Assembly (NCBI RefSeq): GCF_003790525.1
Contig: NZ_CP033635.1
Length of the DNA: 64,000 nucleotides
Direction: 5' to 3' (one strand)
DNA from: Escherichia coli
GTDB taxonomy: Bacteria; Pseudomonadota; Gammaproteobacteria; Enterobacterales; Enterobacteriaceae
The notes below the pieces were generated by a model that had not been told where the DNA came from, searched no databases, and saw nothing but the letters and a program-made list of their open reading frames with translations. The position numbers and the translations under genes were made by a program. Shown piece after piece: positions 29,947 to 35,456 of this stretch (position 1 is its first letter; every line of letters starts with the position of its first letter).

Positions 29947-30912
29947 TTATTTTTCCGCACTACGCAGGGATATTTCACCGCCCATCCAGGGTTTTATTAT
30001 TCCATCCTGCTCAAGCAATAAAGCGCCCTGTTTGTCTATTCCACGTGAAATGCCAAATATTTCTTTATCACCAATGATAAGTTTCACTGGGCGATTAATA
30101 AAATTATCCAGCTTTTCCCAGCGCGAAAGATAAGGTGCCAATCCTTCTTGCTCGAAGAGTTCCAGCGCCGCGCGTAATTCACGTATGAGCATGGCCGCCA
30201 ACGTATTACGATCGAGATTGATTCCCGCTTCCTGCAGCGTGATCCACCCTTGATTAACGACACTCTCTTCAACACGACGCATTGCCATGTTGATCCCGGC
30301 TCCAATGACTATTTGCGCCGCATCGCCGGTTTTGCCAGTTAGCTCCACAAGAATGCCTGCCAGCTTGCGATCCTGCAAATAGAGGTCATTAGGCCATTTA
30401 ACACGAACTTTATCTGCACCCAGCTTGCGTAATACTTCCGCCATCACGATACCGATAACCAGACTTAAACCAATCGCCGCCGCCGGGCCTTGTTCCAGAC
30501 GCCAGAACATCGACAAATATAAGTTTGCGCCAAAAGGCGAAAACCATTTCCGACCCCGGCGACCACGGCCAGCCTGCTGGTATTCTGCAACACAGGCATC
30601 GCCCGATTTAAGCTCTCCGATACGATCAAGAAGGTACTGATTCGTGGAGTCAATAACGGGCAGCACAGTTACACTACCGCCATCCAGCTGACCCAATATC
30701 TGTTCAGCATTAAGTAACTGGATAGGCTCAGGCAGGCTGTATCCTTTACCCGGAACGGTAAAGACATCAACGCCCCAGTCACGCAGTGTCTGAATGTGTT
30801 TATTAATAGCCGCCCGGCTCATTCCTAACGTTTCACCCAACTGCTCACCAGAGTGAAATTCGCCATTCGCTAACAGCGCGATTAATTTCAGCGGAACGGT
30901 ATTATCCTTCAT
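29947..30912 (-). CDS. birA: Bifunctional biotin-[acetyl-CoA-carboxylase] ligase / bio operon repressor BirA
   Basis: 321 aa ORF with N-terminal HTH and biotin-ligase GRGRRGR motif. Confidence 0.96.
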
Positions 30913-31937
30913 GAAATCGTCTCCACTGCGCTAACTTCACCTGATGCACCAATAAAGCGAACTTCAGGCTCAAGCCAGACATTAAATTTTTCACCCACTT
31001 TTTGTCTTACATGATGTGCCAGTTGCACCACATCTTCGCTTTTTGCATTGTCTTCATTAATGAGGACTAACGCCTGTTGACGGTGCACCGCAGCCCCACC
31101 CATTTGCATCCCTTTTAGCTGGCACTGATCGATAAGCCAACCTGCTGCCAGTTTTACTGAACCATCCGCCTGGGGATAATTTGGTGCTGTTGGAAATTGT
31201 GCCAGTAATGCTTTAGCCGTTTCGGCAGATACAACAGGGTTTTTGAAGAAACTACCGGCATTGCCATTCACTTTTGGATCAGGGAGTTTGGTGGTGCGCA
31301 TATGACATACCGCATTAAATACTTGCTGTGGCGTTACGGTTGTAGGATCCAGACGAGTTAAGTCACCATACGTTAGTACAGGTTGCCACTCTTTTGGCAG
31401 ACGCAGACCTACGGCTACAATGGCGAAGCGGTCCTGGTATTCATGTTTAAAAATACTGTCGCGATAGCCAAAACGGCACTCTTTGGCAGTTAAGCGCACT
31501 TGCTTGCCTGTCGCCAGTTCAACACAGTCAACATAAGCGCAAACTCGCTGTAATTCTACGCCATAAGCACCAATATTCTGGATAGGTGATGAGCCGACAC
31601 AACCAGGAATTAATGCCAGATTTTCCAGACCAGGCATACCTTCCTGCAAAGTGTATTTTACCAGGCGATGCCAGTTTTCTCCGGCTCCTACATGTAAATA
31701 CCACGCATCAGGTTCATCATGAATTTCGATACCTTTGATCCGGTTGATGATCACCGTACCGCGATAGTCTTCCAGAAAAAGTACATTACTTCCTTCACCC
31801 AGAATAAGAACGGATTGTCCTTTTGCGGTTGCATGCTGCCAGGCATTGAGTAGTTGTTGTTCGTCTTCGGCACATACAATGTGCTGAGCATTATGATCAA
31901 TGCCAAATGTGTTCCAGGGTTTTAAGGAGTGGTTCAT
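30909..31937 (-). CDS. murB: UDP-N-acetylenolpyruvoylglucosamine reductase MurB
   Basis: 342 aa ORF; overlaps birA by 4 nt as in K-12. Confidence 0.96.
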
Positions 31938-32028
31938 AGCTGCTTTCCTGATGCAAAAACGAGGCTAGTTTACCGTATCTGTGGGGGGATGGCTTGTAGT
32001 TATGACGACAGGGAGTGTTTGTAGAAAC

Positions 32029-32057
32029 GCAAAAAGGCCCAGTCTTCCGACTGGGCC
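32029..32057 (-). terminator. rrnB operon terminator (single hairpin; T2-like flanks with T1-like stem)
   Basis: Minus-strand AGAAGGCCCAGTCGGAAGACTGGGCCTTTTTGCGTTT immediately 3' of 5S rRNA. Confidence 0.8.
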
Positions 32058-32071
32058 TTCTGCTTAATTTG

Positions 32072-32191
32072 ATGCCTGGCAGTTCCCTACTCTCGCATGG
32101 GGAGACCCCACACTACCATCGGCGCTACGGCGTTTCACTTCTGAGTTCGGCATGGGGTCAGGTGGGACCACCGCGCTAAGGCCGCCAGGCA
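32072..32191 (-). rRNA. rrfB: 5S ribosomal RNA
   Basis: 120-nt reverse complement of TGCCTGGCGGCC...GGGAACTGCCAGGCAT, matching E. coli 5S as I recall it. Confidence 0.97.
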
Positions 32192-32283
32192 AATTCTGTT
32201 TCATCAGACCGCTTCTGCGTTCTGATTTAATCTGTATCAGGCTGAAAATCTTCTCTCTTCCGCCAAAACATCTTCGGCGTTGT

Positions 32284-35187
<2,904 letters not shown>

Positions 35188-35380: not shown

Positions 35381-35456
35381 TGGCGTCCCCTAGGGGATTC
35401 GAACCCCTGTTACCGCCGTGAAAGGGCGGTGTCCTGGGCCTCTAGACGAAGGGGAC
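35381..35456 (-). tRNA. gltT: tRNA-Glu (spacer tRNA of rrnB)
   Basis: Reverse complement GTCCCCTTCGTCTAGAGGCCCAGGACACCGCCCTTTCACGGCGGTAACAGGGGTTCGAATCCCCTAGGGGACGCCA. Confidence 0.96.

Follow-up and report, generated by a model that had tools for sequence, protein, structure and literature searches.

Introduction

In the rrnB operon of Escherichia coli K-12, the 5S rRNA gene is followed by two experimentally characterized terminators, T1 and T2 (PMC3643576, for rrnA, rrnB and rrnD). The T1–T2 interval of rrnB is the tRNA-linked repeat (TLR)/sRNA rrB, with counterparts rrA and rrF at rrnA and rrnD; according to Stenum et al. (2021), transcription of these repeats results from read-through of T1, and processing yields short-lived sRNAs, RrA/B/F, which bind Hfq and CsrA in vitro, and the paper that describes them stresses their conservation (PMC8144298). 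At K-12 rrnB, rrnA and rrnD the module after the 5S gene is built in the same order: T1, approximately 110 bp, an 18-bp copy of the 5S 3′ end, and T2. K-12 rrnG carries a single T2-type hairpin directly after its 5S gene, the hairpin at rrnE is of another kind, and rrnC and rrnH run on into tRNA genes. By these arrangements, T1 forms the 5′ end of an optional unit that is placed between the 5S gene and the terminator adjoining unique downstream DNA.

Here we analyze the rrnB 3′ end in a 64-kb stretch of E. coli DNA (the window). The original prediction for this locus was a single hybrid terminator, with a T1-like stem between T2-type flanks, apparently produced by recombination or gene conversion, either between the short repeats that flank T1 in K-12 or between rrn operons. 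We propose, with a probability of roughly 85%, that the window instead carries a native, ancient and common repeat-less form of the rrnB 3′ end, in which one strong intrinsic terminator stands before the DNA upstream of murB.

Organization of the rrnB 3′ end

The window carries the rrnB operon on its minus strand, with the 23S rRNA gene from position 32284 upward (Rfam) and tRNA-Glu in the 16S–23S spacer at 35381–35456. Its last gene, rrfB, occupies 32072–32191 (−) as judged by alignment to MG1655 rrfB with the 120-nt K-12 boundaries, and the Rfam 5S rRNA model RF00001 matches at 32074–32189 (−) with 93.2 bits. The next gene, murB (UDP-N-acetylenolpyruvoylglucosamine reductase), is placed at 30909–31937 (−) by its open reading frame and translation and by the RefSeq annotation of an identical stretch, and is followed by birA at 29947–30912. 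From the 5S 3′ end to the murB ATG the window has exactly the 134 bp that had been predicted (31938–32071), and the corresponding spacer of MG1655, put beforehand at about 300 bp, is 300 bp long (rrfB end 4171756, murB start 4172057). Pairwise alignment of the two spacers with MAFFT contains a single gap of 166 bp, located in the window. This difference is rrB, which carries T1; T1 and the 166-bp unit are missing from the window, and the alignment to MG1655 agrees with the original prediction of a single putative terminator.

The absence of the repeat was also evaluated by direct searches. The T1–T2 spacer, which forms the repeat core, has no match anywhere in the 64-kb window, a second copy of AACTGCCAGGCATCAAAT was not found there, and a single 5S-end motif precedes murB. 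A TLR is recognized as a unit of ~150 bp downstream of the 5S gene that ends in an 18–19-bp copy of the 5S end, and the window contains no such unit. An assembly artefact can be dismissed for the short spacer, since at least 30 independent complete genomes carry the same 321-bp 5S-to-murB sequence at 100% identity.

In the direction of transcription the order is 5S-CAAATTAAGCAGAA-GGCCCAGTCGGAAGACTGGGCC-TTTTTGCGTTTCTACAAAC. The mature 5S 3′ end is separated by a 14-nt AU-rich linker, CAAAUUAAGCAGAA (32058–32071, −), from the terminator hairpin GGCCCAGUC-GGAA-GACUGGGCC (32036–32057, −), which was located by pattern matching and folding and lies on the same strand as the 5S gene, 98 nt before the murB ATG (32036 to 31937). 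A U-rich tract, UUUUUGCGUUUCU (32023–32035, −), follows directly 3′ of the stem. The unique murB upstream region at 31938–32022 (−) aligns to K-12 with three substitutions, and we take it as the leader of murB and possibly its promoter too. Within these 85 bp a block, CGGTAAACTA...TTTTGCATCAGGAAAGC, is kept across genera; in the window the block GATACGGTAAACTAG...TTTTTGCATCAGGAAAGC is found at 31945–31990 (−), ~10–55 nt upstream of the murB ATG. The murB-proximal block is kept from Escherichia to Citrobacter, Enterobacter and Kosakonia, the DNA between block and terminator is not, and the block may represent the −10 region of a murB promoter together with the leader. A consensus scan of positions 31500–32600 scored no sigma-70 promoter ahead of murB.

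Structure of the hairpin and predicted termination

The stem of the window hairpin consists of nine Watson–Crick pairs, seven of them G–C, and carries a GGAA tetraloop. Its core folds with −18.8 kcal/mol, compared with −15.8 kcal/mol for K-12 T1 and −14.7 kcal/mol for K-12 T2. In context the hairpin reaches −26.8 kcal/mol (z = −6.7), and none of 200 shuffled sequences folds as well. In the MFE fold, the 3′ half of the linker (GCAGAA) pairs with the U-tract in an outer stem, GCAGAA/UUUUGC, closed by G–C pairs; extended outer stems have been reported for the terminators of rrnA, rrnB and rrnD (PMC3643576). The U-tract contains five consecutive U residues, after which it is interrupted, and nine U in 13 nt altogether. 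It is identical to the tail of K-12 rrnB T2, and its first 8 nt are kept together with the hairpin in Citrobacter and Kosakonia.

Among 13 aligned variants the stem is 100% paired in every one (13/13), with two compensatory positions that are connected via the wobble intermediates found in K-12 and O157: C–G, U·G and U–A at one position, and A–U, G·U and G–C at the other. The covariation is small (two compensatory cells, equalled by 44 of 500 shuffles) and backs the hairpin only modestly. A consensus terminator scan of 31500–32600 returned zero sites, which is likely a false negative: the hairpin is evident by folding, and the A/T extension of the outer stem probably uses up the T-run, leaving too few T residues for the scan. 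No second hairpin-plus-U candidate was found in the 134-bp spacer, and the only matches of an Rfam search over the spacer, at the gathering threshold and at E ≤ 1, were fortuitous similarities to terminator ends in models of unrelated sRNAs. The K-12 repeat has no Rfam model, and Rfam therefore cannot show that the repeat is absent.

The window contains the elements of an intrinsic terminator: (i) a GC-rich stem-loop, (ii) a U-rich tract directly 3′ of it and (iii) a position behind the last gene of the operon, in the orientation of transcription. From these we infer that the hairpin acts as a single efficient intrinsic terminator that ends the pre-rRNA. RNA polymerase that has passed the 5S gene would transcribe the hairpin and the U-tract, upon which the pre-rRNA would be released; release at the U-tract would set the 3′ end of the 9S precursor, with the hairpin as its 3′ hairpin, and the terminator would insulate murB–birA from rRNA transcription. 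The 9S RNA is processed by RNase E, and the AU-rich linker is like RNase E site b of this RNA. By analogy, RNase E may process the 3′ side of the 9S precursor within the linker.

Frequency of the alleles in E. coli

To count K-12-type junctions at murB we used a query composed of the repeat core, T2 and the unique DNA upstream of murB, with a threshold of at least 80% query coverage. By this measure fewer than half of the complete E. coli genomes (2520 of 5426; 46%) carry the repeat at murB. K-12, with which the original prediction compared the window, is one of two major rrnB 3′ states and not the reference state of the species. Allele lengths were taken from 59 genomes evenly spaced along the ranking for the 5S-to-murB stretch of the window. 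The short form, a single piece of 309–311 bp, was present in 32 of the 59 genomes and the long form in 27. The length fits the 22-nt hairpin in 25 of the 32 short-form genomes and the 20-nt T2 hairpin in the other 7, and the estimated shares at murB are ~42% for the window type and ~12% for 5S followed by T2 alone. A 76-mer from the window matches 2282 records at 90% identity or more, and T2-type copies match it at about 87%.

Three arrangements were observed in the murB loci that we read individually: the repeat with T2 behind it in K-12 and strain 126; a T2 stem after 5S in BE2-5 and O157:H7 strain 4276; and a T1-like stem after 5S in the window, O157:H7 TX 376-2, BEN2908, M24, O169:H41 and O139:H1. 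Two window-like matches at unfamiliar coordinates, which we had suspected to be other operons, proved to lie at murB as well. Within O157:H7, TX 376-2 and strain 4276 differ not only in the stem (T1-like and T2-type, respectively) but also in the linkers, and they share one MurB protein accession and agree in their downstream substitutions. The differences in linker and stem suggest either that operons of this serotype have recently undergone conversion or that rrn copies were confused during assembly.

The repeat core is present at 80% coverage or more in 3942 of the 5426 complete genomes, and in 1484 (~27%) no full-length copy was found. CFT073 has the core only as a 33-bp fragment. O157:H7 keeps the repeat at rrnD only, and a repeat-like match at ~0.5 Mb in O157:H7 is rrnD (rrfF to yhdZ), the record being numbered from another origin.

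The other rrn operons

E. coli SMS-3-5 and about 14 other genomes match the 24 kb upstream of rrnB in the window at 100.0% identity, and only 25 records reach 99% over that distance. In SMS-3-5, the 5S gene is followed by one T2-type hairpin (GGCCATCC-NNNN-GGATGGCC) at rrnA, rrnD (distal 5S), rrnE and rrnG; at rrnC and rrnH the transcript continues into tRNA-Asp, with tRNA-Trp in addition at rrnC, and both operons have terminators of their own. Neither T1 nor the repeat is present in any of the seven rrn operons, and the CAGTC-GGAA-GACTG stem is found at rrnB alone; SMS-3-5 therefore contains no donor for it. Acquisition of the stem by gene conversion from another operon of the same genome, one of the two routes originally suggested, is rejected on this basis, since the six other rrn 3′ ends lack the stem as well as T1 and the repeat.

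The flanks that had been read as T2-type (CAAATTAAGCAGAAGG and CCTTTTTGCGTTTCTACAAA) are both present in the window and identical to those of K-12 T2. On the left, CAAATTAAGCAGAAGG is the same at SMS-3-5 rrnG, and its first 12 bases are the same at rrnC and rrnH; the full linker, CAAAUUAAGCAGAA, follows the SMS-3-5 rrnG 5S gene and also precedes K-12 rrnB T2. Shared left linkers would be expected if conversion tracts starting from identical 5S genes stop at the first heterology. On the right, T2 is followed by GCATTGGCGCAG at rrnA and rrnG and by GCTTTTCGAAC at rrnD. Because T2 has other right flanks elsewhere, the apparent T2-type right flank GCGTTTCTACAAAC is not a hallmark of T2; it is unique murB-proximal DNA common to every allele at rrnB.

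Further differences between these operons were observed. The window rrfB reads GGCCTTAGCG where K-12 rrfB has GGCAGTAGCG (window 32170–32180, 5S positions about 12–14); this CT variant is carried by six of the eight SMS-3-5 5S genes, while rrnG has CG and the distal 5S gene of rrnD has AG and two other changes. Downstream of SMS-3-5 rrnE, yjaA is missing and an IS3-family element interrupts a yjaB-like GNAT acetyltransferase gene, and the terminator of this operon is a T2-type hairpin with a REP-like sequence, unlike the K-12 rrnE hairpin. At the rrnA position of SMS-3-5, between hemG and mobB, the operon carries tRNA-Glu in its spacer. The K-12 rrnA spacer contains tRNA-Ile and tRNA-Ala, and the difference indicates switching of spacer type between operons.

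The murB locus in other species

The DNA upstream of murB was collected from GTDB species representatives, a set in which many contigs break within the rRNA operon and which has E. fergusonii and Salmonella outside it. Of the murB loci that extend to a real 5S end, approximately 39 have a single terminator 120–260 bp before murB, mostly with a T2-type stem, and only about 4–5 have the repeat, including Citrobacter portucalensis and Kluyvera genomosp. 3. One predicted terminator before murB is the norm across Enterobacteriaceae.

The 30-mer GGCCCAGTCGGAAGACTGGGCCTTTTTGCG, which comprises the window hairpin and TTTTTGCG, occurs without change in Citrobacter amalonaticus ku-bf3 and Kosakonia oryzendophytica. 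It is located directly after a real 5S gene in both species, 157 bp (C. amalonaticus) and 123 bp (K. oryzendophytica) before murB, and the unique DNA around it has diverged. In E. whittamii, GGCTCAGTCGAAAGACTGAGCC stands between 5S and murB with the same linker and tail, and U–A replaces a C–G pair of the window; in E. albertii, GGCCCGGTCGAAAGACCGGGCC adjoins murB, with G–C for an A–U pair of the window, on a contig that is cut in the linker, before 5S. The presence of an identical hairpin and U-tract at the same locus in C. amalonaticus and K. oryzendophytica, and of variants in E. whittamii and E. albertii, argues that the allele is old.

Two loci deserve separate mention. In Escherichia sp. 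MOD1-EC7003 a REP-like sequence and a fragment of ~200 bp that opens with ATGGACGAAAAACAATTACAGGC are located between a T2-type terminator and murB; the fragment looks like the start of a transposase-type open reading frame, and it takes the place of the usual proximal leader. Record CACSKA010000031.1, labelled Chryseobacterium sp. 18061, has an Enterobacteriaceae-type 5S–terminator–murB locus with a MurB 77% identical to that of E. coli, which points to a mislabelled or contaminated assembly.

Origin of the single-terminator allele

The native layout that we propose consists of the 5S gene, a 14-nt AU-rich linker, a predicted intrinsic terminator and the unique murB upstream DNA. Its terminator combines a GC-rich stem of nine Watson–Crick pairs with a GGAA loop, a U5GCGU3CU tail and an optional outer A/U stem. 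In ~46% of E. coli, rrB (166 bp, including T1) would have been inserted between the 5S gene and this native terminator.

The alternative that survives best, although we regard it as rather unlikely, is an ancient partial deletion of the repeat in a distant ancestor with 5S, T1, rrB and T2. Its end points would lie 3′ of the T1 stem and 3′ of the T2 stem, so that the T1 stem was joined to the native right flank; as an added step, the left linker would later have drifted or been converted from other operons via the long 5S homology. The MAFFT gap falls exactly at this place, and C. amalonaticus carries a left linker, CAAATAAAGCGAAAGG, that is one base from the T1 type and stands on a T2-type tail. 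The repeat is also old, as it precedes murB in C. portucalensis and Kluyvera, and the left linkers form a mosaic series across alleles. However, most genera have a T2-type single terminator, so that the repeat-bearing state is not obviously ancestral, and the reverse is equally possible, in that an original T1-like terminator was later captured by the repeat.

The scenario closest to the original prediction is a recent recombination or gene conversion in a K-12-like ancestor with T1, rrB and T2, in which the T1 stem became fused to T2 flanks and 166 bp were deleted, and this we consider improbable. It would account for a stem that is 20/22 identical to K-12 T1 between flanks that equal those of K-12 T2; the 18-bp direct repeat and the GGCCTTT microhomology that it could use do exist in K-12, and rrn operons do exchange sequence, as illustrated by O157:H7 strains with different stems. 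The predicted products do not agree with the window. First, a single crossover at the 18-bp repeats, the proposed exchange between repeats flanking T1, would give 5S followed by the T2 stem; this product is observed in BE2-5 and O157 strain 4276, not in the window, and the crossover is rejected. Second, a recent deletion at the GGCCTTT microhomology, to which the MAFFT gap placement corresponds, predicts the T1 left flank AAAACGAAAGG, which the window does not have: its left linker differs from the T1 type at four positions. This deletion is rejected also by the fact that the allele is common to several genera. Third, the window places a T1 stem between the left and right flanks of T2. This order is not collinear with K-12, and to reach it a 14-bp patch would have to be converted with 6–7 bp of homology on each side. 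Finally, an identical hairpin and tail are found in other genera, with compensatory variants in other Escherichia, SMS-3-5 has no T1 donor, and the right flank is locus-specific DNA. The idea that recombination or conversion shaped this region thus holds in part: rrn 3′ ends are mosaic and exchange sequence, but a rearranged K-12-like T1–T2 region is not borne out.

Transcription complexes on rrn operons resist Rho, which counts against the consequence of a further proposal, that the hairpin is mainly a processing or stability element of the 5S precursor (a 3′ protective stem in an RNase E/RNase III context) with real termination elsewhere or Rho-dependent. We consider this reading very improbable, for although 14 nt of AU-rich linker separate the hairpin from the mature 5S end, and the stem is conserved more strictly than a generic terminator needs, a U-run follows the stem directly, the 134 bp hold no other hairpin-plus-U candidate, murB begins 85 bp further on and needs insulation, and the homologous T1 and T2 of K-12 are characterized terminators. 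The two roles are not mutually exclusive.

Implications

The native, repeat-less reading bears on how the region is described. The rrnB T1–T2 region of textbooks and vectors represents K-12 and ~46% of E. coli and not the species, and the short form should not be treated as a deletion mutant in annotation or comparative work. The lack of a full-length RrA/B/F copy in ~27% of genomes, and in every rrn operon of SMS-3-5, bears on how essential the proposed CsrA/Hfq role of these sRNAs can be. A more far-reaching reading, which we consider improbable, is that the two forms at rrnB differ in function: the repeat with two weaker hairpins and the single stronger hairpin would differ in how much growth-rate-coupled read-through reaches murB–birA from the rRNA promoters. 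On this reading window-like lineages would also be natural triple nulls for the RrA/B/F sRNAs, and roughly a quarter of E. coli would do without, or have replaced, any CsrA/Hfq titration by them. The feature itself is ordinary and of little consequence for biology at large.

Comparison with known terminators

In its stem, the window hairpin is closest to K-12 rrnB T1. The core GGCCCAGTCGGAAGACTGGGCC agrees with the T1 core GGCTCAGTCGAAAGACTGGGCC in 20 of 22 nt; no other site in the 64 kb does so, and zero are expected by chance. The two mismatches are structure-neutral or improving, and the stem thus resembles T1 rather than T2, as noted originally. At stem position 4 the window has C–G where K-12 T1 has U·G, and the window hairpin is stronger by 3 kcal/mol. 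Its GGAA loop is identical to the T1 loops of rrnA and rrnD. Both hairpins are the first after 5S, and both can form an outer A/U stem closed by G–C pairs. The flanks, in contrast, differ: the window reads AAGCAGAAGG...CCTTTTTGCG where K-12 T1 has AAAACGAAAGG...CCTTTCGTTTTATC. K-12 T1 has a long perfect outer stem, AAAACGAAAGG...CCTTTCGTTTT, and precedes rrB, whereas the window has neither this stem nor rrB, and its hairpin is the sole putative terminator at the locus.

In its position, the window hairpin corresponds to K-12 rrnB T2. It is the last hairpin before the unique murB upstream DNA, with the tail TTTTTGCGTTTCTACAAAC, as in K-12 T2, and it shares with T2 the genomic position directly upstream of the unique murB leader as well as an identical left linker and right tail. 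The stems belong to different families, with nine pairs in the window (GGCCCAGTC/GACTGGGCC) and eight in K-12 T2 (GGCCATCC/GGATGGCC), and the T2 stem with a four-nucleotide loop has no match within three mismatches in the whole 64-kb window. Moreover, the window hairpin follows a real 5S gene, whereas K-12 rrnB T2 follows the 18-bp pseudo-5S end of the repeat.

K-12 rrnG and the rrnA, rrnD, rrnE and rrnG operons of SMS-3-5 have the same architecture as the window, that is 5S, a CAAATTA(A/T)GC(A/G)(G/A)AAGG linker, one hairpin and TTTTTGC; they differ from it in their T2-type stem and in their downstream DNA (REP elements, kgtP, mobB, yhdZ). The repeat rrB, with its sRNA RrB (PMC8144298), is missing from the window and accounts for the 166-bp difference in length from K-12.
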